Part shown: positions 25,801 through 40,764 of the stretch, one piece after another
How the letters are laid out: each line of letters begins with the position of its first letter
How positions within the stretch are numbered: position 1 is the first letter of the stretch
Virus record (IMG/VR): IMGVR_UViG_3300033121_001133
Location: 64,001 to 128,000 of that record
DNA length: 64,000 bases
Reading direction: 5' to 3' (one strand)
Source: a virus
Lineage: Duplodnaviria > Caudoviricetes
Made by a program: the position numbers and the translations under genes
The notes under the pieces: model-generated
What the model saw: only the letters and a program-made list of their open reading frames with translations
Database searches by the model: none
What the model was told of the DNA's origin: nothing

Positions 25801-26643
25801 ATGGCTATGTTAGTACAAGGATCACAGGGAAGTAAGGTTATTAAGGTCCAGCAGAGGCTTGGCATACGAGCAGATGGGGATTATGGTCCTCAAACTAAGG
25901 CTACGGTCAAGGCCTGGCAGAAAGCTAATGGGCTACCTCCCACAGGAGTGGTGGATTCAGATACCTGGAATAGGATGTTTGATAGTGTTGCGGACGTGGA
26001 GGTTACACCACAAGCAGCGCCTCCAACGCAGCCTGAGGCAGTCCCGCAGACTCGGACCTTTGACATTATTTTCAAGGACCATCTTCCACCATCCGTAATT
26101 GCAGAGTTGTCTACTATTGTGAAGTTAGGAGGTGATACTAATCTCAAAATGGCACACTTCCTTGCTCAATGTGCACACGAGTCAGGAGACTTCAAGCTAG
26201 TTCAGGAGAATCTGAAATACTCGGCTGCTAGATTGCAGCAAATCTTCCCGAAGTACTTCCCTGGAGACCTTGAAGCTGAGTATGCTGGTAAGCCTGAGAA
26301 GATTGCTTCGCGGGTTTATGCTGATCGATTGGGTAATGGTAACGAGGCTTCGGGAGATGGGTGGAAGTACCGAGGTAGGGGCTATATTCAACTGACTGGC
26401 AAGTCAAACTACCAGGCATTCAGCGCGTTTATTGGAGAGGACTGTGTAGCTAATCCTGACTTAGTTGCAACTAAATACCCACTAGCATCGGCAGGATTCT
26501 TCTTTCAGAGGAACGACTTGTGGGATTTGTGTCTAGATAGATCAGACGCGACTGTTGAGAAAATCACACGAAAGGTTAACGGAGGGACTCACGGTCTGGA
26601 GGATAGGATTGCGAAGTTCCGACACTTCAATTCCTTGCTATGA
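25801..26643 (+). CDS. Endolysin: peptidoglycan-binding domain plus GH19 catalytic domain
   Basis: G..V..VQ..LG..ADG.YG..T...V..WQ binding domain; FLAQCAHES, YRGRG.IQLTG..NY, T..VNGG..GL.DR. Start set at ATG 25801. Confidence 0.9.
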   Translation: MAMLVQGSQGSKVIKVQQRLGIRADGDYGPQTKATVKAWQKANGLPPTGVVDSDTWNRMFDSVADVEVTPQAAPPTQPEAVPQTRTFDIIFKDHLPPSVIAELSTIVKLGGDTNLKMAHFLAQCAHESGDFKLVQENLKYSAARLQQIFPKYFPGDLEAEYAGKPEKIASRVYADRLGNGNEASGDGWKYRGRGYIQLTGKSNYQAFSAFIGEDCVANPDLVATKYPLASAGFFFQRNDLWDLCLDRSDATVEKITRKVNGGTHGLEDRIAKFRHFNSLL

Positions 26644-27065
26644 AAGTTCGATTCAAGTTGCTCAGGCCCGATGCGGTTCTTCCCCAGTATGCAAAGCCCG
26701 GTGATGCGGGAATGGATTTAGTGGCAGTTAGTATACCTACGAACACGACTTTTCAGATTACCTATGGGTTAGGACTTGCTTGTGAGATCCCTGAGGGATT
26801 TGTTGGATTGCTTTTTCCCAGATCCTCGATTAGGAATTATGAGCTGCAGTTAGCTAACTCTGTAGGAGTGATTGACTCCGGTTACCGGGGAGAGTTGCAG
26901 GTGACCTTCAATAAAACCAGTGGGTTAGGCTCTCTCTGTTACAACAGAGGAGATAAGGTGGCTCAGCTAATGATTCTACCTTTCCCTTGCATAGAGGTGG
27001 TGGTTGCTGATCAGTTGAGTATTACTGAGCGTGGCGAAGGAGGATTTGGAAGCACTGGAAGGTGA
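26640..27065 (+). CDS. dut: Trimeric dUTPase
   Basis: All five motifs present: AGMDL, PRSS, GVIDSGYRGE, GDKVAQL, RGEGGFGSTG. Confidence 0.95.
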   Translation: MKVRFKLLRPDAVLPQYAKPGDAGMDLVAVSIPTNTTFQITYGLGLACEIPEGFVGLLFPRSSIRNYELQLANSVGVIDSGYRGELQVTFNKTSGLGSLCYNRGDKVAQLMILPFPCIEVVVADQLSITERGEGGFGSTGR

Positions 27066-28827: not shown

Positions 28828-29118
28828 ATGTATTACCCCACAGTAGCCTTTGAAGGAGGAGTTTACCAGGTGCTTAGAGTATTCCGAGAGCACAAGGACT
28901 TCCCCACTCAGGATATGAGAGAGTACTTAGGAGTATGCGATAAGGTGCTGAGGTTACACGGCAAGTTATACTTCTGCCGCTCGATACCAGAGGTCGAATT
29001 TGAAGAGATTCAGCAAGATGAGCAAGTTCAATTGGTGGAGGAGGGGACACAAGGCCAGACCGAAGTTAACCCCAGCCCAGCTGAAGAAGGGCAGATCCAA
29101 GCTACTGCAGCAGATTGA
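28828..29118 (+). CDS. Hypothetical protein
   Basis: ORF directly behind the promoter; D.VLR..GKLYFC..I.E. Confidence 0.55.
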   Translation: MYYPTVAFEGGVYQVLRVFREHKDFPTQDMREYLGVCDKVLRLHGKLYFCRSIPEVEFEEIQQDEQVQLVEEGTQGQTEVNPSPAEEGQIQATAAD

Positions 29119-29455
29119 GCATGGGGACTTTGAGCTGAGTCCTTATCGCCAGCTAGCTGAGCGCGAGCTTGAAATTGCAGTGCAGCGGAAGGATCAGATA
29201 ACAGCTGGATGGAAGGGAGGTCAGGATAGCTTAAAAGAAAAGCTGTCAGAGGTTGACTTTCTAACTCAGAAGAGGTATAATAGATTGTATGAAGATTTTC
29301 ACACCCAAGAGCAGCGAATGCTAGAGGAGCTTAGGCGTCGATTGATCTCCGAATTCAAGGTTGATATCTGGGATCAAGTCCTACAAGAGCGAGAAGATTT
29401 AAGTACAGTTGAGTTCTATCATAAATACAAGCAATATGCAACACAAGCAGCCTGA
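29018..29455 (+). CDS. Hypothetical protein
   Basis: ATG 29018; F.WWRR...LL..IE.GDFE.SPY; helical. Confidence 0.55.
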   Translation: MSKFNWWRRGHKARPKLTPAQLKKGRSKLLQQIEHGDFELSPYRQLAERELEIAVQRKDQITAGWKGGQDSLKEKLSEVDFLTQKRYNRLYEDFHTQEQRMLEELRRRLISEFKVDIWDQVLQEREDLSTVEFYHKYKQYATQAA

Positions 29456-29849: not shown

Positions 29850-30608
29850 ATGCCCCATACACTAATACAACAATGCCCCACCTTTAGTAAAAAGGTATCA
29901 GGTGAGGATAAGCTAGCAATAGCTGAAATGTTCTGTGATACCATTCAAGGAGAGGGTGTCCATGCCGGGTTGCCAGCAACCTTTGTCAGGCTACAAGGAT
30001 GCACTTTGAAGTGTGTCTGGTGCGATACACTGACAGTGTGGCCGTACGGCAATGAGTACTCGTTTGATGAGATCTTTGCATTGTGGGAGGGAGTGGGGTT
30101 GATCAAGAGGCTGGATGAAGGTCAGCACCTAATCCTAACTGGGGGTTCACCACTCAAACAGGAGCAGCGACTGATTCAGTTCATCAACGCGTTCATCAAG
30201 AGATATCACTTCAAGCCTTATATTGAGGTAGAGAATGAAGCTGTGTTAATGCCATCAGCGGAGCTTGAGAAACTTGTGGATTGGTGGAACAACTCACCGA
30301 AGCTGTCTAACTCGGGAATGAAATCCAGGGTTAGGATCAAGCCTGAGGTGATAGATTACATGGCTGCACTACCTAATAGCTCGTTCAAGTTCGTAGTGTC
30401 AGCTCCTCAGGACTGGGATGAGATTGTTAAGGATTACATTGAGCCCTTCTCAATTAGCAAGGATCAGATCATCCTTATGCCTGAGGGTCAGACTCAGGCT
30501 GAGCTTCAGGTTAGTAGACCAGTAGCAGCTCAGATGGCAATTGAGCATCAGGTTAGATTCACTGACCGTCTACACGTGACCATTTGGGATAAAAAGACAG
30601 GCGTCTGA
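29850..30608 (+). CDS. queE: 7-carboxy-7-deazaguanine synthase (radical SAM)
   Basis: E.F..TIQGEG...G.P..FVRL.GC.L.C.WCDT (CxxxCxxC), LTGG.P, SPKL, LMPEG, RLH..IW. Confidence 0.93.
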   Translation: MPHTLIQQCPTFSKKVSGEDKLAIAEMFCDTIQGEGVHAGLPATFVRLQGCTLKCVWCDTLTVWPYGNEYSFDEIFALWEGVGLIKRLDEGQHLILTGGSPLKQEQRLIQFINAFIKRYHFKPYIEVENEAVLMPSAELEKLVDWWNNSPKLSNSGMKSRVRIKPEVIDYMAALPNSSFKFVVSAPQDWDEIVKDYIEPFSISKDQIILMPEGQTQAELQVSRPVAAQMAIEHQVRFTDRLHVTIWDKKTGV

Positions 30609-31165: not shown

Positions 31166-31238
31166 CTTAGGATGGGATTTTATTCCCAAGAGACTAATCA
31201 CAGTCGATTTTGTAGACAACAACCCAATTAAAAAATGA
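31113..31238 (+). CDS. Possible 41-aa protein not in the ORF track
   Basis: MTDPNNLKRSNLGKTFLSLGWDFIPKRLITVDFVDNNPIKK; its TGA overlaps the queD ATG (ATGA). Confidence 0.35.
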   Translation: MTDPNNLKRSNLGKTFLSLGWDFIPKRLITVDFVDNNPIKK

Positions 31239-31708
31239 GATACATAAGTACCAAAATCTTTGATAACTATTCGGTGGCGATTAGACAGTGGAAGGCACAA
31301 CACTCTCACTGCTCGAAGCTGCATGGCTATGCGTTTAAGTTCAAGGTCTGGTTTGCTTCGGTGGAGCCTGAAATTGACAAGCAGCTGGATGACATGAACT
31401 GGGTTCAGGACTTTGGGGGCTTCAAGACTGCGCCTCAAGGCAACGGTCTAAAAGACTGGATGGACCACATGTGGGATCACACTACTCTAATCCAGAAGGA
31501 CGATCCCTATGCTGACATCTTTGTGCAGATGGAACAGATGGGGTTGTGTAAGCTTCACTTACTAGACAAGATGGGAGCTGAGAGCTGTGCTAAGTTGGTG
31601 TTTGACAAGTTTAACGACGTCTTATCAAAGACTGATGCTGGTCGCTGCAAGGTGATTAAGGTGGAGTGCTTTGAGAATGACAACAACAGCTCAATCTATG
31701 AAGAGTAA
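31235..31708 (+). CDS. queD: 6-carboxy-5,6,7,8-tetrahydropterin synthase
   Basis: SHCSKLHGY, W.QDFG..K, WDHT.L, .AE..A, V..FE...NS. Confidence 0.88.
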   Translation: MRYISTKIFDNYSVAIRQWKAQHSHCSKLHGYAFKFKVWFASVEPEIDKQLDDMNWVQDFGGFKTAPQGNGLKDWMDHMWDHTTLIQKDDPYADIFVQMEQMGLCKLHLLDKMGAESCAKLVFDKFNDVLSKTDAGRCKVIKVECFENDNNSSIYEE

Positions 31709-31937: not shown

Positions 31938-32135
31938 GTGCACGAGTTGTTTCATGTGATAGGAGCTTGTCACGATAGTACAGCTCACGCGGATTTGCTA
32001 GATTTTCTGCTAGCAGATAGTCAGATTACTCACTATATTAACCAAGTTATTCAACGCTATGTTACTCAATTGCGATCAAGTATTCGATCTGTTACAGACA
32101 AACGGGCTAGGAGCAAAGGCTCAGGTAGGCTATGA
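31938..32135 (+). CDS. Hypothetical protein
   Basis: GTG start; overlaps the next gene by 77 nt. Confidence 0.35.
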   Translation: MHELFHVIGACHDSTAHADLLDFLLADSQITHYINQVIQRYVTQLRSSIRSVTDKRARSKGSGRL

Positions 32136-32541
32136 TTTAACTCTGCAGGGAGTTAAGCGAGTCACTGGGGGTGTGATTACACAAGAGAAGACCTCAATTC
32201 ATCCTTATGAGGAGGTGATGCCAATGATCAACCCAGCTGGTAAGCCTATGTTTAGGCTGACTAGAGGGGCATACTCTCTAACCTTCGATCAAGGGATCAA
32301 GCTACCTAACGACAAAACCGCCTTCATAAGACATCGATCTAGTATCGCTCGATGTGGATCAGTGATCACTAGTGGCATATTCGATCCTGGATTTGAAGTT
32401 GACCAGATGGGAGCGATTATGATAGTTCAGGAGGAGATCTTCATAGAGAAGGGAGCTAGGGTGGCTCAGGTATACATATTCGAGAATCACCCAGCTCCTA
32501 GATATGACGGTCAGTTCCAGGCGGGAAGGGATATTAAGTGA
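32059..32541 (+). CDS. dCTP-deaminase-family / dUTPase-fold protein (second dUTPase-fold gene)
   Basis: GYDLTL, RSSIAR, GIFDPGF, GARVAQ, YDGQFQ; the deaminase catalytic Glu after DPGF is not evident. Confidence 0.8.
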   Translation: MLLNCDQVFDLLQTNGLGAKAQVGYDLTLQGVKRVTGGVITQEKTSIHPYEEVMPMINPAGKPMFRLTRGAYSLTFDQGIKLPNDKTAFIRHRSSIARCGSVITSGIFDPGFEVDQMGAIMIVQEEIFIEKGARVAQVYIFENHPAPRYDGQFQAGRDIK

Positions 32542-32551
32542 TACAGGCAAT

Positions 32552-32896
32552 ATGCGTAGGTTTATTGAAGTCAAGTTAGATGTGGAGGGTATTCACTGCT
32601 GGTCTAACTGCAACATCGAGGAGGTGGATTACTTGAAGTATCCCCATCGACATACCTTTCAATTCCTGTGTAGGGCAGAGGTTACTCACGGAGATCGTGA
32701 TATTGAATTCATTGAGTTCAAACACAAGATTAAACACTACCTGGGTACTAAGTACTACGATAAGAAATACAAGTGTTGCAACTTCATTGGACAGTCCTGT
32801 GAGAGTTTGGCGGAGGAATTACTAAATCAGTTTGGACTGGTAAGGTGCTCGGTGTCGGAGGATGGTGAGTTTTTTGGAATCGTTAACGCCAACTGA
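32552..32896 (+). CDS. QueD-paralogous T-fold protein, DpdL-like (putative CDG decarboxylase)
   Basis: EG.H.W, LKYPHRHTF (LxxxHRHxF), DRDIEFI, SCE.LA, VSEDGE; lies inside the deazaguanine cluster. Confidence 0.65.
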   Translation: MRRFIEVKLDVEGIHCWSNCNIEEVDYLKYPHRHTFQFLCRAEVTHGDRDIEFIEFKHKIKHYLGTKYYDKKYKCCNFIGQSCESLAEELLNQFGLVRCSVSEDGEFFGIVNAN

Positions 32897-32899
32897 TAC

Positions 32900-32909
32900 C
32901 TACTTATAG
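32900..32909 (+). promoter_or_regulatory. Late-type promoter motif CTACTTATAG
   Basis: 2 nt upstream of ATG 32912. Confidence 0.55.
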
Positions 32910-32911
32910 TC

Positions 32912-33130
32912 ATGCGAGAGAGGATTCCAGGAGGTTTGGCAGCAGGCAAGACTCTAAAGTCTCTGCAGGCTAGGTATCCAGACTTTGACATCAAGGCAGC
33001 TATCCTGCAAGGAGCTAGAGTTGAGATGGAGCACACGACTGATCCAGCAATTGCCGTAGAGATTGCGATGGATCATCTAATGGAGGATCCTTTATACTAC
33101 AATAAGCTCAAGCGTGCAGAAGCAAACTAA
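32912..33130 (+). CDS. Small phage protein (DUF5661-like)
   Basis: G..VEMEHT.D...A.EIAMDHL.EDP.YY.KLK. Confidence 0.7.
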   Translation: MRERIPGGLAAGKTLKSLQARYPDFDIKAAILQGARVEMEHTTDPAIAVEIAMDHLMEDPLYYNKLKRAEAN

Positions 33131-33131
33131 G

Positions 33132-33611
33132 ATGTCAACCTCGGTTATAGAACTCCCTCCAATCACCCTGTTATTTGGTAAGATTTGCAGTGGCAAAAGT
33201 ACCTTTGCAGAGGCTTTATCGTACGTTACCAAAGCGAAGCATATAACAGTATCGGATATAGTTAAGTCCCTCTCAGGGCTGCATACAAGAAGCGGTTTAC
33301 AACTAACCCAGCATCTTGATGAGGCTATTGCTGCGGAATTGGTACGTCAAATTAAAGCGTATGATAAGGTGATTATTGATGGAATCAGGCAGAAGTCAAT
33401 TGTGGAATGGCTGATCAATGAGTTTGGTGATTCCAAAATCAAGATGATTTGGCTGGAAGTGCCAGATCACACAAGAAAGTATCGGTTTGAGGATAGAGTG
33501 GTTGCAAAGGACGATCTTACATTTGAGATGGCCGATCGCCGCGATGCAGATTTAGGGTTGCTTGAGTTGCAAGCAGCGCTTCAAAATGAGTATACTATAA
33601 TCAACAACTAA
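33132..33611 (+). CDS. P-loop nucleotide kinase (NMP / dephospho-CoA kinase-like)
   Basis: GKICSGKST Walker A, VIIDGIR, R..R lid motif. Confidence 0.75.
   Translation: MSTSVIELPPITLLFGKICSGKSTFAEALSYVTKAKHITVSDIVKSLSGLHTRSGLQLTQHLDEAIAAELVRQIKAYDKVIIDGIRQKSIVEWLINEFGDSKIKMIWLEVPDHTRKYRFEDRVVAKDDLTFEMADRRDADLGLLELQAALQNEYTIINN
33567..33596 (+). promoter_or_regulatory. Sigma70-like promoter TTGCAA-N18-TATACT
   Basis: Lies within the 3' end of the kinase gene, upstream of folE. Confidence 0.45.
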
Positions 33612-33627
33612 CACTCGCACAAGTTAC

Positions 33628-34275
33628 ATGGAGCTTCTAAAGAAAGCTAACGGAAACCTTTATCGCACAGAGGAAGAAAAGCAGCACATGATCGAACAGG
33701 CTGCTCAATACTACGGTCAGTTCCTAACCGCATTAGGGTTTGATTGGGCAGCCGATCCCCATAGCGCAAACACTCCACATCGAGTAGCTAAAGCCTGGGT
33801 TCACGATCTAATTAAAGGGTCTCTAAGTGAGGAGCCTGTAATTACGGCGTTTCCTAACGATGAGGGATATACTGGTTTGATTTGTCAGACCAGAATTCCC
33901 GTGGTTAGTCTCTGCGCACACCACAACCTAACTTTCCACGGCCTATGTCATGTTGCATACATAGCTGGTAAGGAAAAAGCCGACATGGTAATTGGTTTAA
34001 GCAAACTCAACCGTATTGTAGATTTTTATGCTCGTAGACCTAATATACAGGAAAGCCTAACCAAGCAAATACATGACCATATTGCTAGACTGTGCGTGGG
34101 TAATAGGGGAGTGGCGGTTGTAATCGAGTCTCAACATAACTGCGTTAAGTGTAGAGGTATTAAACACGATTCCATCATGAAGACCTCTCAAATGAGCGGT
34201 TATTTCTGGACTAATGAGGTTGGTACTCGCCAGGAGTTTTTTCACCTCATCGACCAGAGTCGATTTGGAGCTTAA
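33628..34275 (+). CDS. folE: GTP cyclohydrolase I
   Basis: TP.RVAKA, SLCAHH..F.G..HVAYI, GLSKLNR, RRP.IQE.LT, H.C..CRG. Confidence 0.95.
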   Translation: MELLKKANGNLYRTEEEKQHMIEQAAQYYGQFLTALGFDWAADPHSANTPHRVAKAWVHDLIKGSLSEEPVITAFPNDEGYTGLICQTRIPVVSLCAHHNLTFHGLCHVAYIAGKEKADMVIGLSKLNRIVDFYARRPNIQESLTKQIHDHIARLCVGNRGVAVVIESQHNCVKCRGIKHDSIMKTSQMSGYFWTNEVGTRQEFFHLIDQSRFGA

Positions 34276-34304: not shown

Positions 34305-34664
34305 ATGCTAATCAAAATCGATACCAAGGAAAGGTCAATTTCCATAGAGGAGGTTTTAACTTTTGAGCAGCTAGAGCACACCCTCAAGACCCTGTTTCCA
34401 ACCGACTATAAGGAGTGGAAAATCAACACCAACGTTAAGGTAGAGCTTACCAGCTCTCCAATTATTATTCGTGAACGACCTCGCTATCCGGATTGGTGGA
34501 ATAATCCGTACTGGTACTCTACGGCTGAAGTGAAGAGCGTTCCGAGCTTGCTGTGTGATGGAGTCAGTACCACAACTATGGTAGGTGGCACTAGCACAGT
34601 AACCAACGCTAGCATACCCTCCAGTGTTGTGGTTGATTATGCACCAGACTCCAACGCTAAGTGA
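34305..34664 (+). CDS. Hypothetical protein
   Basis: Co-oriented ORF; P/W-rich centre and T-rich tail. Confidence 0.45.
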   Translation: MLIKIDTKERSISIEEVLTFEQLEHTLKTLFPTDYKEWKINTNVKVELTSSPIIIRERPRYPDWWNNPYWYSTAEVKSVPSLLCDGVSTTTMVGGTSTVTNASIPSSVVVDYAPDSNAK

Positions 34665-35470
34665 TGGACTTCTATGTAATCTCTCCGGTAAGCAACCTGG
34701 AGCCGATGAAGCTCGGCGATCGAATCTTTGTACTAGCTCATCTATGGGTCAAGTACCCACACTACAGGGAATTCATCCTACAGCAGAAGGCCGAGGGTAA
34801 GTTCCTAACACTGGATAACTCAGCTGCTGAGCGAGCTCTTGTTACTGAGGACGTGTTGATTGACATCTGCAGGGAGCTTCTCCCTAACGAGGTGATAGCA
34901 CCCGACGTCCTGTTTAATAAGAACGCTACTATTGCCAACGCTAAGTCGTTTATCAATAGAATGCATCGAGAGGGTCTGACTGAGGGTCTGTATAAGGTTG
35001 ACATTTTCTTCTGTCCTCAGGGTAAGACAAAGCAAGATTGGTTAGAGGCATATCAGTGGGGAGTTGAGTGTAAGTACATCTCCACAATCGGATTCTCAAA
35101 GATTGCTATTCCTCAGGCCTGGCTAGTTGATTGGAAGGATGATCAGGGTATTAAGCAGGCTCGTCATATGGCATATGATTACCTGCGAGATCGTAATATG
35201 CTAGTCAAGCCCATTCACTGCCTTGGCCAAGGCGATCCAACTGAGTTTTCTTACTACAACCACCCCATGATGAGAAGTACAGACTCGGTGTTCCCAATTC
35301 TAGCAGCTGCTCATGGACAGGCCTTCAATCTAGATAGTGCAACTAGGATTCCAACTCCTCACGACTTCTTAGAAACCTACGATATGTCCAAAATCGACAT
35401 GGAGCTGGTGGCAAACAACATAGATTTTCTACGCAGGCAGTGTAAAAGCACTCTTAAAGAGCAACCCTAG
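34664..35470 (+). CDS. TGT-fold 7-deazaguanine DNA transglycosylase (DpdA-like)
   Basis: TGT motifs in order: LDNSA (cf. DSGG), APDV, CPQG, IGFS, IHCLG, RSTDS; closes the folE/queD/queE cluster. Confidence 0.7.
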   Translation: MDFYVISPVSNLEPMKLGDRIFVLAHLWVKYPHYREFILQQKAEGKFLTLDNSAAERALVTEDVLIDICRELLPNEVIAPDVLFNKNATIANAKSFINRMHREGLTEGLYKVDIFFCPQGKTKQDWLEAYQWGVECKYISTIGFSKIAIPQAWLVDWKDDQGIKQARHMAYDYLRDRNMLVKPIHCLGQGDPTEFSYYNHPMMRSTDSVFPILAAAHGQAFNLDSATRIPTPHDFLETYDMSKIDMELVANNIDFLRRQCKSTLKEQP

Positions 35471-35583: not shown

Positions 35584-37839
35584 ATGTCACATCAGCAGGA
35601 GAAGAACTACGTAATTGTACGTACAAGAGAGCAATTTGATCAACTATTTTCTCATATAGAGAGTAGCAACCTGATTGCGTATGACATCGAGACAGATAGT
35701 CTGAATCCTCGCAAAGGCTCTATCATTGGTTTCTCAGTCTCAGGTAACATAGGAGTAGGATACTACCTGCCAACCAGGGTATGGGACGCTGAGAAGCAGC
35801 AGTTAGTGGATCTGGAGGTAGAAGGCCACAGCTGCCACAACTTAGCACGTGCTTTGATTCGCAAGTTGAAGGGTAAGAAGCTGGTGATGCATAATGGATC
35901 GTTTGATATACGCTTCACTAAGGCCTATTATGGAATAGATCTGAGAGATGATCTGTATTGTGACACTCTCCTACTACGCCACACTCTCGTGGAGGATGGA
36001 CCGTTTGGATTGAAGACCATAGCGATCGAGTTGCAGAACCATCTTGGATTGGATGCTGAAAAGGAAGCTAACGAGGAGCAGGTGCTGATGAAGCAGAGCA
36101 TCAAAGCTAATGGAGGAAGCACCACAAAGGACAACTTCGAGCTATACAAAGCAGAGTTGGAGTTGCTAGGTAGATACGCTTGTGCAGATACCGATCTAAC
36201 TCTGCGAATAATGACCCACTACTTGCCAATCTTAAAGGAGCAGGATCTGTGGGATTTCTTCTTTGAGCAGGAGGTGATGCCTCTGTATAAGACAGTTACC
36301 ATCAAGATGGAGGAGATGGGAACTGAGTTGGACATGGATCTGATCAGAAAGACTAAGAACGATATCACATTAGATCTAACCGCTCTTGAGTCGGAGATTG
36401 TGTCTGAGCTGCTATCGCTCAATCCGGTCAAACAGTGGGTGATCGAGAGAGCTTGTGAAGCATTCCCTCCAAAGAAGAGAGGTAGGTTCCGAGAGGAGCT
36501 ACTCAACCTAAAGAACCCAGTCAATCCAACCGCGATTGATCAATTTTTGAATGGGGATCTTCCAGCTTCGGAACTAGACCCTCAAGACAGCGTGGGAGTC
36601 AGCCTGTCTTTGTGGAGGATCAAGGAGGGTGGCTTCATCAATATCAGTTCAAGGAAGCAGCTGGCTGAGATTTGCTTTAAGTATCTTGGGATCAAGCCTC
36701 TGAGTCAGACTAGAAAAGGGTCTGATCAGTTTGATGATGACCTTATTGAAGAGCTAAGCAATACCCACAGCTGGGCAGCGAAGCTTCGCGACTTTAATAA
36801 GCTAACCAAGATCAGTAGTGCCTATATCGACAGGTTTCTGGAGGGAGCTGAGGAAGGTCGGTATTATTGGTATTTCAAGCAAGCCGGCACCACAAGTGGA
36901 AGATTTAGCTCGGACTGTCAACAGATCCCTCGATATCTGGAACCCGGGGAGGTTAGTGATTTAGTTAGGAGGTACAACAATATCCTGCGTAGCTTCTTAA
37001 AGGCCGAGCAAGGTCGTAAGCTGATCATCTGTGACCAGTCCTCGCTGGAGCCAAGAGTATTCGCCTCGGTCAGCAACGATCCCAATCTAATCAACGTATT
37101 CCGCGATAATGAGGATCTGTATAGCAGAGTAGCCATACAGGCGTTCAAGCTCAGGGGTATGAGTGCAAAGAAGGATGACGACAACTACGTCAAGAAGCTT
37201 AGACCAGAGCTTAGGCAGCGAGCTAAAAGCATTGCTTTGGCTATACCATATGGGGCCGGAGCTTGGCAGATTGGACAATCCCTAGGCATACCGCCGCAGA
37301 AAGCTCAGTTGCTGATTAACGACTACCTTGAAGGCTTTCCTGAGCTAGCTAGATGGATGACTGATACACACCTCAAAGTACAGACAGTGGGCTTTGTCCG
37401 TAGTCGCGCTGGCCGCATAAGGCATCTTGACCGAGCAAAGGAGATATACAACACCTTTCAAGATCATCTACTAGATCCTCGTGCGTTTAAGATGATGAAG
37501 GATATGTGTAAGTCTGCGGAGCAGTTACAAAAGCTGATGCAGCTGCGAGCAGAATACAAAAACGCCCTGAACAACAGCAAGAACTTTCAGATCCAATCCC
37601 TAGCAGCTAGTATTATGAATAGGTCTGCAATAGTGATTCATCGAGATTTTGCAGAGATGGGGTTGGACGCATACATTATGCTGCAAATCCACGACGAGTT
37701 TGTAATCAACTGCGCTGAGCAGGATGCTGAGAAGGTAGCAGCGATTGTTAAGCATCGAATGGAAACTACGGTAGAGATTCCTACAGGATTGGTAGCAGAG
37801 CCGAATGTGGCTGATAACTTCGGAGAGGGACACGCATAG
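35584..37839 (+). CDS. polA: Family A DNA polymerase with 3'-5' exonuclease
   Basis: Exo I YDIETD, Exo II HNGSFD, Exo III YACAD; TTSGRFSS; motif A DQSSLEPR; motif B RQRAKSIALAIPYG (Leu at the 762-equivalent position); motif C QIHDE. Confidence 0.95.
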   Translation: MSHQQEKNYVIVRTREQFDQLFSHIESSNLIAYDIETDSLNPRKGSIIGFSVSGNIGVGYYLPTRVWDAEKQQLVDLEVEGHSCHNLARALIRKLKGKKLVMHNGSFDIRFTKAYYGIDLRDDLYCDTLLLRHTLVEDGPFGLKTIAIELQNHLGLDAEKEANEEQVLMKQSIKANGGSTTKDNFELYKAELELLGRYACADTDLTLRIMTHYLPILKEQDLWDFFFEQEVMPLYKTVTIKMEEMGTELDMDLIRKTKNDITLDLTALESEIVSELLSLNPVKQWVIERACEAFPPKKRGRFREELLNLKNPVNPTAIDQFLNGDLPASELDPQDSVGVSLSLWRIKEGGFINISSRKQLAEICFKYLGIKPLSQTRKGSDQFDDDLIEELSNTHSWAAKLRDFNKLTKISSAYIDRFLEGAEEGRYYWYFKQAGTTSGRFSSDCQQIPRYLEPGEVSDLVRRYNNILRSFLKAEQGRKLIICDQSSLEPRVFASVSNDPNLINVFRDNEDLYSRVAIQAFKLRGMSAKKDDDNYVKKLRPELRQRAKSIALAIPYGAGAWQIGQSLGIPPQKAQLLINDYLEGFPELARWMTDTHLKVQTVGFVRSRAGRIRHLDRAKEIYNTFQDHLLDPRAFKMMKDMCKSAEQLQKLMQLRAEYKNALNNSKNFQIQSLAASIMNRSAIVIHRDFAEMGLDAYIMLQIHDEFVINCAEQDAEKVAAIVKHRMETTVEIPTGLVAEPNVADNFGEGHA

Positions 37840-37890: not shown

Positions 37891-38724
37891 ATGAGTCTAC
37901 TAAGCCTATTAGATGAGAAGCTAGGTCCTCCGCTGCGGAAGAAGGTGGGGGATTATCTGATGGCCAACGACGAAGACCTTGCTAGGCTACAAGGACTAAA
38001 CCCAGACAAGCTACCTGAGAAGGATACCCCCTGGGAGCGAGCTTTATACAAGCTGCTACGATCGTGGACTAGTGCGTCCACAGATGGCCACGCCCACAAT
38101 CTCGACAAACTTCGTAGTGACCTGCAACAGCTCAAGTCAGAGTTTCCTGACTTAATGAAGCCGCAAGGCTCACAGCCGGTATACAGGCTAGCACACATAC
38201 ACACCAAGTCCGTAAAGAAGACCCTCTCAAGTAAGAAGGTGTCTAAACAAGTTCAACTAGCCGGTCAGAGTTGGCTTTCAGTAGGAATGTATAATTACAA
38301 GCCTCATCGCCCAGTGCAGTCGTGGACCATAAACCCACGAGTGTTACAAAATTTTATCAACGTAGATGTGCGTGATGCAATTAGGGTGGTTTATATTGGT
38401 AAGCCAACTTCGGAGTTTATCTTCAACCCAAACACCATAGATGTCCTGAGCCAGAACCCAGGAGAATACGAGACGTTGAGGTTTGCAGGTGAGGGAAAGT
38501 TTCAAGCTCTGCTGAACAGTGAAGATTTGATCGATCTTAAGCTTTTACACCATCTTCCTCAATTTAAGAAGCGTTTTGATGAGCAGTATCTTAGAGTTAG
38601 AGATTATACAGATGCCTGGGAAAACCCCAAGATACGCTCTTGGGATGGTGTTGATTTTGATGATGAGTTTGCGGAGAGCTTATACCGAGACACCGCCAAA
38701 CAAGCCCTTCGGAGCTTGAAGTAG
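37891..38724 (+). CDS. Putative ADP-ribosyltransferase (R-S-E clade)
   Basis: PVYRL, VQSWT and GEYET motifs in canonical order; leader MSLLSLLDE. Confidence 0.5.
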   Translation: MSLLSLLDEKLGPPLRKKVGDYLMANDEDLARLQGLNPDKLPEKDTPWERALYKLLRSWTSASTDGHAHNLDKLRSDLQQLKSEFPDLMKPQGSQPVYRLAHIHTKSVKKTLSSKKVSKQVQLAGQSWLSVGMYNYKPHRPVQSWTINPRVLQNFINVDVRDAIRVVYIGKPTSEFIFNPNTIDVLSQNPGEYETLRFAGEGKFQALLNSEDLIDLKLLHHLPQFKKRFDEQYLRVRDYTDAWENPKIRSWDGVDFDDEFAESLYRDTAKQALRSLK

Positions 38725-38778: not shown

Positions 38779-39117
38779 ATGAAAAACCAATTAGATGCCA
38801 AGCCCCGCGCAAATAAGGGAACAGCTTTGTTTGAGCCAGTCTCCGATAAGCTGATATGTGAGTCTGTCGATCAGGAAGATATGAGCTCCGGAGGAATTGC
38901 ACTGGCCGATGTTAGCGAACAGCGAACTCTGAGAGGTAGAGTGCTGTTTGCAGGGCCCGGATTTTGGGCCGCTCCTGAAATGTTCGTTCCCACCACTCTT
39001 AAGCCTGGTGATCAGATCTTGTATCAGAGGTTTGCTGCGCAGACCTTTGAGCACGACGGTAAAGAGTATCAGATTGTGCAGGAACGTGATGTGATAACTA
39101 AAATCAACCCCCAATAA
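38779..39117 (+). CDS. groES: Co-chaperonin GroES
   Basis: P..DK, SGGI.L, G.V...GPG, LKPGD.ILY, GKEY.IV.E.DV. Confidence 0.9.
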   Translation: MKNQLDAKPRANKGTALFEPVSDKLICESVDQEDMSSGGIALADVSEQRTLRGRVLFAGPGFWAAPEMFVPTTLKPGDQILYQRFAAQTFEHDGKEYQIVQERDVITKINPQ

Positions 39118-39120
39118 GTT

Positions 39121-40764
39121 ATGAAGACGAGACCTAAGCTGTTAAAGTATAGTGATGAGGCTAGAGAGAAGATACGCACCGGCGTTGAAAAGCTTTCAGA
39201 GGCAGTTCAAGCTACTCTGGGACCTTGCGGTCGTAACGTGTTGATTGAGAAGGAGGGTAGTGGTCCTGTGATTACTAAGGATGGTGTGTCAGTTGCTAGA
39301 GAGGTGCATTTGAGTGATCCGGTGGAGAACCTAGGAGCTCAGGCGATTAAAGAAGTTTCGATGAGGGCTTCTAGGCAAGCCGGCGACGGCACAACAACAG
39401 CCACAGTACTCGGTGCTCAAATGTACAAAGGAGGTCTTCGAGCTTTAGGGTCCGGAGCCAATCCAGTTGAAGTCAAGAGAGGAATGGACCTTGCAACAGG
39501 TAAGGTGATCGATCAACTTCGCACCCTAAGTCAGGAAGTGAAGACCAACGATGAGATTAGGCAAGTAGCCACCATCAGCGCCAACAACGACCAGAGTGTT
39601 GGAGGAATAATCGCGGAAGCAATGAAGGAGGTGGGTAAGGATGGGGTGATTCAAGTGGATCAGAGTAGGACTTCGGAGACTACCCTAGAGATTGTAGAGG
39701 GAATGCAGATCGAAAGAGGTTACATTTCACCTTACTTTGTGACCAACAACTCCTCAATGACCGCCACTCTGGAGAACCCCTACATCCTAATCTGCGATAA
39801 GAGGATATCAAGCACCAAGGAAATACTCGGTCTGCTGGAGACTTGTAGTAAGGAGGGGAGAGCCCTTTTGATTATTGCCGAGGACGTTGATGGAGAGGCT
39901 CTTGCTACGATTGTGCTGAACAAAGCGCGTGGAATCCTAAACGTGTGTGCGATCAAAGCTCCTGGATACGGCGACAAGAAGGCTCACATGCTGCAGGATG
40001 TGGCTACTCTGACCAAAGCAGAGGTGGTTTCTACCCAGAAGGGTATGAGGCTAGATAAGCTAACCAAGGAGATGCTAGGTAACGCGCGCAGCGTGCTGGT
40101 GTCTCAAACTGAGACGGTAATCGTAGATGGCGCTGGTAATGTTGACACAATCAAAGAGCGAATTGAGCTAATCAAGACCCAATACGAAAAGGCTGATAGC
40201 GACTATGAGAAGCAGAGCCTGAAGGAGCGTATGAGCAAGTTGATTGGTGGAGTTGCTGTACTGAACGTTGGAGCAGCCACCGAGCTTGAGTTGAAGGAGA
40301 AGAAGGACCGCGTGGACGACGCGCTACACGCGACTCGTGCGGCTGTGGAAGAGGGCATCGTGCCTGGTGGTGGCATCGCTCTATTGGTAGCTGCGAGGGT
40401 ACTAGCAGATCTCAAAGGTGAGAATGATGATCAGAACCTAGGTATCCAGATTGTACGCAATGCTTGTGCCGCTCCATTCAAGGCAATAATCCAGAATTCA
40501 GGCAAGAGCCCAGAAGCTATACTAGATAAGGTGATTGTTGCTGTGGTTGAAGCTGGAAATAAAGAAGGTCGTATCGGATATGACGCACGTAATGGTGTTG
40601 TGTGTGATATGATCGACGCTGGGATCATTGATCCAACTAAAGTGACCCGTACCGCACTAGAGCTAGCTAACTCTGTGGCGGGAACCCTACTAACCACTGA
40701 GTGTGTGATTAGCTTTGATCCAGACTTCAAAGAAGACGTCAAACAACCTCAATTTGAGTACTAA
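39121..40764 (+). CDS. groEL: Chaperonin GroEL
   Basis: [58 protein letters not shown]; no GGM tail. Confidence 0.97.

Follow-up and report, generated by a model that had tools for sequence, protein, structure and literature searches.

In Cellulophaga phage phiST, 2′-deoxy-7-deazaguanosine (dDG) replaces all of the deoxyguanosine (dG), and the genes concerned encode FolE, QueD, QueE, DpdL and DpdA3 (Cui, Hutinet et al., NAR 2023, PMC10516641). The DNA of Campylobacter phage CP220 carries dADG at 100%, ADG being 7-amido-7-deazaguanine, and phages with DpdA3 are those in which 100% replacement occurs (PMC10516641). A pre-replicative origin of the modified base was proposed for Campylobacter phages in work cited in PMC6884629; a post-replicative model of DpdA3 action later replaced this idea (PMC10516641). 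Here we analyzed a stretch of 64,000 nucleotides of viral DNA (Duplodnaviria; Caudoviricetes), positions 64,001 to 128,000 of the IMG/VR virus record IMGVR_UViG_3300033121_001133, which is referred to as the window in the following and is numbered from its first letter. It holds a 7-deazaguanine module in which a gene for a DCD/dUTPase-fold protein and a gene for a P-loop protein resembling nucleoside monophosphate (NMP) kinases lie on either side of the DpdL gene. We conclude that the two genes are very probably dedicated parts of the DpdA3-type module. This adds two further conserved components to the DpdA3 pathway: a clade of DCD-fold proteins, putative hydrolases found almost exclusively in deazaguanine clusters, and a kinase that in some contigs forms one protein with DpdL.

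The 7-deazaguanine module of the window

The record to which the window belongs spans 137 kb and has an estimated completeness of 81%; the genes of the window are located on the plus strand throughout. Nine kb of the window yielded no match in a megablast search against 50,697 phage records, and we therefore consider the phage uncultured. The enzymes of the early pathway were readily identified: FolE (GTP cyclohydrolase I, 33628–34275; Pfam GTP_cyclohydroI, 143 bits), QueD (CPH4 synthase, 31235–31708; Pfam PTPS, 49 bits) and QueE (7-carboxy-7-deazaguanine (CDG) synthase, 29850–30608), a radical SAM (S-adenosylmethionine) protein with matches to Pfam Fer4_12 and Radical_SAM. QueE shares 53% identity with the annotated queE of phage MA9V-3; its matches to the NCBIfam QueE models (E 5e-19 to 1e-17) stay under the cut-offs of these models. 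QueD is 42% identical to QueD of phiST and reads CxxxHGY instead of the canonical zinc-binding CxxxHGH. This variant is found in 128 of 137 QueD proteins of related loci, and as phiST itself carries it, it is presumably functional.

The DpdL reading frame is open from 32504 to 32896 with a probable start at the ATG at 32552, giving a protein of 114 amino acids (aa) as in its relatives. DpdL is the proposed CDG decarboxylase and a paralogue of QueD (phrog_17812). The window protein is 32% identical to phiST DpdL CGPG_00067 (BLASTP, E 2e-18) and its motif L-KYP-HRH-T-F corresponds to the published DpdL signature LxxxHRHxF, which stands in place of the CxxxHGH of QueD and was present in all 73 family members that we collected. 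FolE, QueD, QueE and a DpdA protein lie alongside, and no QueC was found in the whole 137-kb record. The DpdA protein is encoded by the gene described as TGT-like in a first-pass annotation of the window (34661–35470, phrog_20335). We assign it to DpdA3, as its 269 aa show 39% identity to phiST CGPG_00065 (E 5e-63) and 27% identity to the DpdA3 of CP220 (gp056), and its AlphaFold2 (AF2) model (pLDDT 94) shows no more than a barrel of the TGT type, which matches TGT in Foldseek with E 1e-6 and a probability of 1.0. It is about 100 residues shorter than bacterial TGT, which has 360–380 aa. We also considered an argument from the charge of the DpdA3 family, which is acidic (median pI (isoelectric point) 5.0), and dropped it, since the DNA-acting DpdA1 of phage CAjan is acidic as well (pI 6.3, net charge −4).

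Because of the DpdL signature, the homology of DpdA3 and DpdL to phiST and the absence of QueC from the record, the module, as judged by its sequence, is of the known phiST type for 7-deazaguanine, and the uncultured phage probably replaces the guanine of its DNA with 7-deazaguanine. The phiST cluster has the order QueD-QueE-FolE-CGPG_00068-DpdL-CGPG_00066-DpdA3 and shares with the window the enzyme set, the lack of QueC and the succession hydrolase, DpdL, kinase, DpdA3. However, the hydrolase CGPG_00068 resembles MazG and dimeric dUTPases, whereas the protein in the corresponding slot of the window has the DCD/dUTPase fold, and in the window FolE is inserted between the kinase and DpdA3. A further difference is the gene for a family A DNA polymerase (PolA) with 3′-5′ exonuclease (35584–37839; Pfam DNA_pol_A, 207.6 bits; DNA_pol_A_exo1, 40 bits), which lies directly behind DpdA3, where the first-pass annotation had placed a full PolA; DpdA3 and PolA remain neighbours in more than 20 related contigs. 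In Chryseobacterium phage MA9V-3 the DCD-fold gene, DpdL, kinase and DpdA3 follow each other in the order of the window.

A DCD-fold clade and a kinase linked to deazaguanine clusters

The DCD-fold gene (32059–32541) encodes a predicted non-deaminating (d)NTP pyrophosphatase of 160 aa that matches Pfam DCD (PF22769) with 51.8 bits (E 1.3e-13; cut-off 27) and Pfam dUTPase (PF00692) with 24.5 bits (cut-off 22). Its scores against more specific models are lower than required: 76.2 bits for the archaeal dUTPase model PRK02253 (cut-off 130) and 35.6 bits for the Dcd model TIGR02274 (cut-off 92.8). Among solved structures, 9w59 (‘probable dUTPase’) comes closest (profile E 4e-14). With the archaeal-type DCD-family dUTPases (PRK02253, 9w59) and the Dcd structure 4xjc the protein shares the fold, RSSxxR, the Asp of DPGF, R-x-A-Q and the C-terminal Y-x-G-Q-x-Q; it differs from them in lacking the deaminase Glu, in a longer hairpin, in its scores below the cut-offs and in its place within que clusters. 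The catalytic Glu of Dcd (ITLELFN in 4xjc) aligns to Ile or Val in the window protein, and Glu does not occur in this column in any of 141 aligned family members. Conserved in the family are R93, S94, S95, R98, D109-P-G-F112, R134, Q137 and Y149-x-G-Q; of these R93, S94, S95, D109 and Q137 showed no variation among 29 cluster-linked members and hardly any among the 141. The residues RSS/R, the DPGF Asp, R134, Q137 and Y-x-G-Q-x-Q bind the triphosphate and activate water in this superfamily. The phosphate-binding and water-activating residues of dUTPases (RSS, the motif III Asp and the motif IV Gln) are thus in place, and the enzyme appears to have lost deamination while keeping the residues for cleavage between the alpha and beta phosphates. 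By contrast, the uracil hairpin D-x-G-Y-R-G-E of dUTPases is replaced by DPGFEVDQMG: the segment behind DPGF reads E-V-D-Q-M-G-A, compared with Y-R-G-E in dUTPases and N-G-Q-I-T-L-E in Dcd, is longer by one residue and has a nearly invariant Gly followed by Ala or Thr. The C-terminus Y-D-G-Q-F-Q is of the DCD type, without the RGxxGFGSTG of motif V. Longer, fused forms of the protein (P0147, P0150, P0157 and others) carry partners that are uninformative, namely GIY-YIG, a crAss001_48-like piece or none.

The window also encodes a canonical trimeric dUTPase (dut, 26640–27065; Pfam dUTPase, 65.7 bits; PDB dUTPases down to E 8e-24) with all five motifs: AGMDL, PRSS, GVIDSGYRGE, KVAQL and RGEGGFGSTG. 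As dut is canonical in full, the second dUTPase-fold gene is redundant for dUTP in the window. The coexistence of the two genes was observed in at least 10 relatives as well. The first-pass annotation had proposed a second, DCD-like dUTPase-fold protein without the catalytic Glu and redundant with dut, and had placed this protein and an NMP-kinase-like one to either side of a DpdL-like gene; these descriptions agree with what the profiles, the alignment and the DpdL signature between the two genes revealed.

We then surveyed the genomic context of the DCD-fold family, which comprises 363 clusters at 90% identity near the window protein and 138 clusters at 50% identity with E < 1e-30. Three scans of IMG/VR with different alignments and two small ones yielded 125 distinct sequences with 33–69% identity to the protein of the window. 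A gene for FolE, QueD, QueE or DpdL was located within 7.5 kb in 120 of these. Of the five exceptions, four are close to a contig end (∼2 kb or less). The remaining one, L171, is flanked by ∼7 kb on either side and has no que gene in range, only a P-loop kinase-like gene ∼5 kb upstream. When only loci with at least 5 kb upstream and at least 3 kb downstream were counted, 76 of 77 were que-linked, and DpdA3 was in range in 55 of the 77. About one fifth of the representatives of the family at 50% identity were placed in genomic context in this way; for 122 of 150 representatives none of the loci examined reached 50% identity, and two of their sub-groups are almost absent from IMG/VR.

The linkage extends over at least seven gene arrangements. 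The group of the window has QueD-DCD-DpdL-kinase-FolE-DpdA3-PolA, and others read FolE-QueE-QueD-PRTase-DCD-DpdL-kinase-DpdA3 (PRTase, phosphoribosyltransferase), FolE-HGPRT-DCD-DpdL::kinase-ligase-DpdA3, FolE-DCD-YhhQ-like-DpdA3-kinase-QueC-PolA, QueE-DCD-FolE2-DpdA3-kinase and QueD-DpdA3-QueC-...-QueE-FolE-XPRT-like-DCD-PolB. The neighbours of the DCD-fold gene vary accordingly and may be DpdL, FolE, FolE2, a YhhQ-like transporter or an upstream purine PRTase, in clusters with DpdL or with QueC; the identity of DpdA3 to that of the window drops to ∼25% across these arrangements, and both PolA and PolB lineages are involved. A conserved linkage across phages, named beforehand as a check on the first-pass annotation, was thus confirmed for the DCD-fold clade, which is almost confined to deazaguanine clusters, and also for the kinase, which goes with DpdL and DpdA3. 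The que-dedicated DCD-fold clade is newly recognized here.

The P-loop gene lies in a frame (33114–33611) that is open from a GTG at 33114, with a probable start at 33132. The protein (33132–33611) has the Walker A motif GKICSGKST, matches Pfam AAA_18 (41.5 bits) and AAA_33 (32.6 bits) and is homologous to phiST CGPG_00066 (30% identity, BLASTP E 1e-13). Residues G22, C25, G27, K28, R59, G90, R92, Q93, R124 and R128 are invariant; across 35 sequences there is little or no variation in GxxCSGKS, R59, D-G-I-R92-Q, R121/K122, R124 and R128, so that the Walker A motif, an NMP-site arginine and three arginines of the LID region, as expected of an NMP kinase, are all present. The AF2 model (pLDDT 86) points in the same direction: its top PDB match is 3lw7, an AMP-bound adenylate-kinase-related protein (TM 0.73, 28% identity), followed by AK1, AK5 and UMP/CMP kinases. 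None of the named kinase equivalogs (adk, gmk, tmk, cmk) was matched at its cut-off, the best being adk TIGR01351 with 22.6 bits against a cut-off of 168.

For the kinase we scanned IMG/VR with a pattern from a DpdA3 alignment. The resulting 80 loci were annotated with profiles from the window, phiST and CP220 and represent 56 DpdA3 clusters at 90% identity, 37 of them at least 38% identical to the DpdA3 of the window. DpdL was found in all of these 37 lineages and the kinase in 36. In six contigs (L038, L041–43, L049 and L052) the kinase forms the C-terminal domain of a DpdL fusion (domain E ∼1e-40). Among the 50,697 cultured phages kinase homologues occur only in phiST-like phages and MA9V-3, which have both DpdL and DpdA3. 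T4-like phages with DpdL (ACP17, RHph_I1_18, PA5oct and others) yielded no kinase in tblastn searches, and we therefore consider the kinase tied to the combination of DpdL and DpdA3 and not to DpdL itself. The CAjan and phage 9g system with DpdA1 and preQ0 shares FolE, QueD, QueE and a DpdA-family transglycosylase adjoining replication genes (PMC6884629). However, replacement in CAjan is partial (∼30%), QueC and a YhhQ-like transporter are present, and we found neither a kinase nor a hydrolase inside the DpdA1 cluster, the dUTPase being located 14 kb away. CGPG_00066 had been set aside with the statement that it has no homologues in other deazaguanine phages (PMC10516641); our data contradict this statement of 2023. 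New here are the DpdL-kinase fusion, the pairing seen within DpdL-type clusters (36 of 37 lineages) and the contrast to CAjan. In our literature search we found no paper that connects deazaguanine DNA with this kinase or with an enzyme of the DCD fold.

Some genes within these clusters deserve mention on their own. In the contig with the fusion at L041:5492–6460 (DpdL followed by AAA_18) an ATP-dependent DNA ligase comes next and then DpdA3. A complete phage genome of 147 kb encodes a queuosine-precursor transporter of the YhhQ/Vut_1 type (L116:7501–8127) between the DCD-fold gene and DpdA3. HGPRT- or XPRT-like purine PRTases were observed within DpdA3 clusters (L041:4419–4952, L112:6308–6847, L139:6438–6851 and L013:416–811), often directly upstream of the DCD-fold gene. 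In the record of the window itself, which is ∼81% complete, we found neither a PRTase nor MazG, and an HD match was below threshold. The Bacteroides phages SJC03 and DAC16-23 form the sole cultured lineage with a close DCD-fold homologue (41% identity) outside a que cluster. There it is located between a phosphatidylserine-decarboxylase-like gene and, directly behind it, a diverged GMP-reductase-like gene (L002:7095–9483 in SJC03, the same in DAC16-23; best NCBIfam matches GMP reductases, 89 bits, below the cut-off). An amidinotransferase-like gene is located upstream, a normal dut is also present and there is no DpdA3; the locus may serve another guanine-nucleotide pathway.

A possible nucleotide-level route and its alternatives

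To our knowledge the DpdA3 phages are the only case in which complete base replacement is ascribed to a post-replicative enzyme. In the well-studied phages with complete replacement that we know of (T4, SPO1, PBS1/2 and S-2L) the modified base reaches DNA by way of its dNTP, and the canonical dNTP is destroyed by a hydrolase of the phage. For S-2L both features are described in PMC8342488. T4, with the dCTPase gp56, the dCMP hydroxymethylase gp42 and the dNMP kinase gp1, and S-2L, with MazZ, DatZ and PurZ (PMC8342488), follow one logic and reach complete replacement: a hydrolase for the canonical dNTP, a modifying enzyme that yields the altered dNMP, a kinase and the phage's own polymerase. 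The first-pass annotation had suggested a comparable pre-replicative interpretation for the window. The part of it that concerned conserved linkage stood, and candidates for the dNTP hydrolase, the maker of the modified dNMP and the kinase are present and linked. The folds, motifs and linkage reported above are observations, and every substrate in the scheme below is inferred.

By analogy, the pathway could run as follows. FolE, QueD and QueE would convert GTP to CDG, DpdL would take off the carboxyl group and DpdA3 would swap the base. The DCD-fold enzyme would cleave dGTP to dGMP, depleting the canonical nucleotide and at the same time supplying a mononucleotide substrate. DpdA3 together with DpdL would then convert dGMP to 7-deaza-dGMP with release of guanine, the decarboxylation by DpdL taking place at the level of either the base or the nucleotide; the guanine might be recycled towards GTP for FolE, in relatives through the purine PRTase encoded in the cluster. 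The NMP-kinase-like protein would form the diphosphate and the NDP kinase of the host the triphosphate, and PolA would incorporate 7-deaza-dGTP. Such a nucleotide-level route through dGMP, base exchange and re-phosphorylation is one that we favour tentatively, at slightly less than an even chance. Mononucleotide intermediates are the simplest explanation of hydrolases of three unrelated folds, a kinase tied to DpdL, the PRTases and the adjacent polymerase. Unrelated phosphohydrolase folds indeed occupy the hydrolase slot in phiST (MazG-like) and in CP220 (a fusion of HD and kinase domains), a case of non-orthologous displacement. In CP220 (L008:7847–10340) the DpdA3 gp056 lies between gp055, the fusion of HD and AAA_33, and gp057, a P-loop ‘thymidylate kinase’, relatives of which adjoin distant DpdA3 genes in nine further lineages. 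We discarded the idea that the kinase of the window is homologous to the P-loops of gp055 and gp057, as the similarity is only marginal (E 0.002 to 0.5), and better regard them as analogous members of the same Pfam families. A nucleotide route would also explain why DpdL and DpdA3 alone yielded no dDG in E. coli (PMC10516641), and it fits the ADG nucleoside reported in the cytoplasm of CP220-infected cells (cited in PMC10516641 and PMC6884629). Further hints come from the CAjan cluster with its partial modification, which has neither enzyme, and from the Bacteroides phages, whose DCD-fold gene adjoins a GMP-reductase-like gene although a normal dut is present.

Several points weigh against this route. 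We know of no trimeric dUTPase or DCD-fold enzyme that acts on a purine nucleotide, nor of a case in which transglycosylation by a TGT-fold protein was shown on a mononucleotide, and the T4 and S-2L enzymes are not homologous to those of the window, where the dNMP step would be a TGT-fold transglycosylation. The cluster hydrolase is the only dUTPase-like gene that we found in the complete relatives G002 and G003 and in phiST and MA9V-3, and it could be the plain dUTPase of these phages. L044-type DpdA3 lineages show no recognizable hydrolase near DpdA3, and the lineage with QueC and PolB shows no kinase within 4–7 kb of DpdA3. Furthermore, shared ancestry inflates our linkage counts, and much of the linkage may have been inherited within one large Bacteroidota-type phage group. 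Finally, DNA has been the substrate of every DpdA protein assayed so far, and those who described the DpdA3 family argue for a post-replicative reaction (PMC10516641). Taken in its full form, with DpdA3 as a nucleotide-level transglycosylase on dGMP or dGTP, the DCD-fold clade as the first dGTP-specific member of the trimeric dUTPase superfamily and the kinase completing a pre-replicative path to 7-deaza-dGTP, the proposal is possible and on balance doubtful.

The alternative that survives best is that DpdA3 swaps guanine in finished DNA, that the DCD-fold protein works as a normal dUTPase or dCTPase belonging to the replication and nucleotide genes, and that the kinase and the PRTase recycle guanine to GMP, GDP and GTP for FolE. 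Insertion after replication is what PMC10516641 argues for, and DpdA of CAjan (DpdA1) is genetically required for DNA modification (PMC6884629). The best family match of the DCD-fold protein to the archaeal dUTPase model PRK02253, the ‘probable dUTPase’ 9w59 and the lack of another dUTPase-fold gene in the four phages named above agree with an ordinary hydrolase, and the HGPRT- and XPRT-like cluster genes suit guanine recycling. However, the match to PRK02253 remains well below the equivalog cut-off (76 versus 130 bits) and the YRG hairpin motif of dUTPases is replaced. Moreover, this explanation does not account for the restriction of one clade of the fold to que clusters of at least seven different layouts, for its retention in the window and in many relatives that also have a complete canonical dut, or for a kinase that is fused to DpdL and not to a salvage enzyme. 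We consider it rather unlikely.

The fusion and the strict pairing of DpdL with the kinase also allow another explanation, in which the P-loop protein is a partner of DpdL in an ATP-dependent step on CDG or a CDG nucleotide and the DCD-fold protein, acting as a house-cleaning enzyme, hydrolyses unwanted deaza-(d)NTPs that host salvage produces and leaves dGTP alone. This would fit the absence of dDG with DpdL and DpdA3 alone (PMC10516641) and the absence from the record of QueC, the ATP-using enzyme of the alternative branch, and such nucleotides would be products of the PRTase whose gene immediately precedes that of the hydrolase in several lineages. However, the model of the kinase with its NMP site and LID arginines resembles NMP kinases and not carboxylate-activating enzymes, a plain decarboxylation requires no ATP, and the DCD-fold clade occurs in QueC-type clusters without DpdL too, which makes this explanation improbable. 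It is very improbable that the kinase is a polynucleotide 5′-kinase that acts with a ligase to heal nicks or abasic-site breaks left by base exchange in DNA: AAA_33 is the Pfam family of polynucleotide kinases, the CP220 fusion of HD and AAA_33 and the ligase between DpdL-kinase and DpdA3 in L041-type contigs would suit this role, and the polynucleotide kinase structures 4jt2 and 4gp7 are among the fold matches, but these (TM 0.57–0.61) rank clearly below the adenylate-kinase-like 3lw7, the cluster of the window has no ligase, and fusion to the small-molecule T-fold enzyme DpdL is ill-suited to an enzyme for DNA ends.

The genes described here provide a concrete set for reconstitution of the pathway and raise the question whether it runs through dGMP and 7-deaza-dGTP. 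If the nucleotide-level route holds true, it would mean that the TGT fold and the dUTPase fold each act on a class of substrate new to them, and the complete guanine replacement in phiST-, immuto- and CP220-type phages would follow the logic of hydroxymethylcytosine in T4 and of Z genomes; the published post-replicative model would then be limited to the partial systems with DpdA1, DpdA2 or DpdA4. In that case 7-deaza-dGTP, which is in wide use as a reagent for PCR and sequencing, could also be made enzymatically.

Neighbouring genes and minor observations

Upstream of dut we identified, in this order, a 5′-3′ exonuclease, a DnaB-like helicase, a class II ribonucleotide reductase and an endolysin-like protein. 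A protein of 573 aa to which no function was assigned is encoded between dut and QueE, and another of 119 aa between FolE and DpdA3. The small open reading frame (ORF) between DpdL and the kinase (32912–33130, 72 aa) matches Pfam DUF5661 with 41.3 bits; a homologue occurs in only one contig (L007) among the first four relatives compared, and the ORF is an accessory, not a conserved part of the module. PolA is followed by a protein of 277 aa without assigned function (37891–38724), an ORF of 112 aa (38779–39117) and a GroEL-like chaperonin (39121–40764; Pfam Cpn60_TCP1, 237 bits). The chaperonin and the small ORF upstream of it are kept in the relatives L005 and L007.

A conserved ORF of 65 aa (31938–32135) starts with the HExxH-like sequence MHELFH and, in a different frame, runs 77 nucleotides into the DCD-fold gene; homologues were found in L004, L006, L007, L015 and L035. 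In CP220 a homing endonuclease is encoded just upstream of the region from gp055 to gp057. A basic protein of 150–160 aa with the motif G-D-F-x-x-S-P-Y, found in the window at 29000–29455 and at L060:7477–7965, is encoded repeatedly next to deazaguanine clusters, whether these are of the DpdL or of the QueC type; in the QueC type its gene lies immediately upstream of DpdA3.

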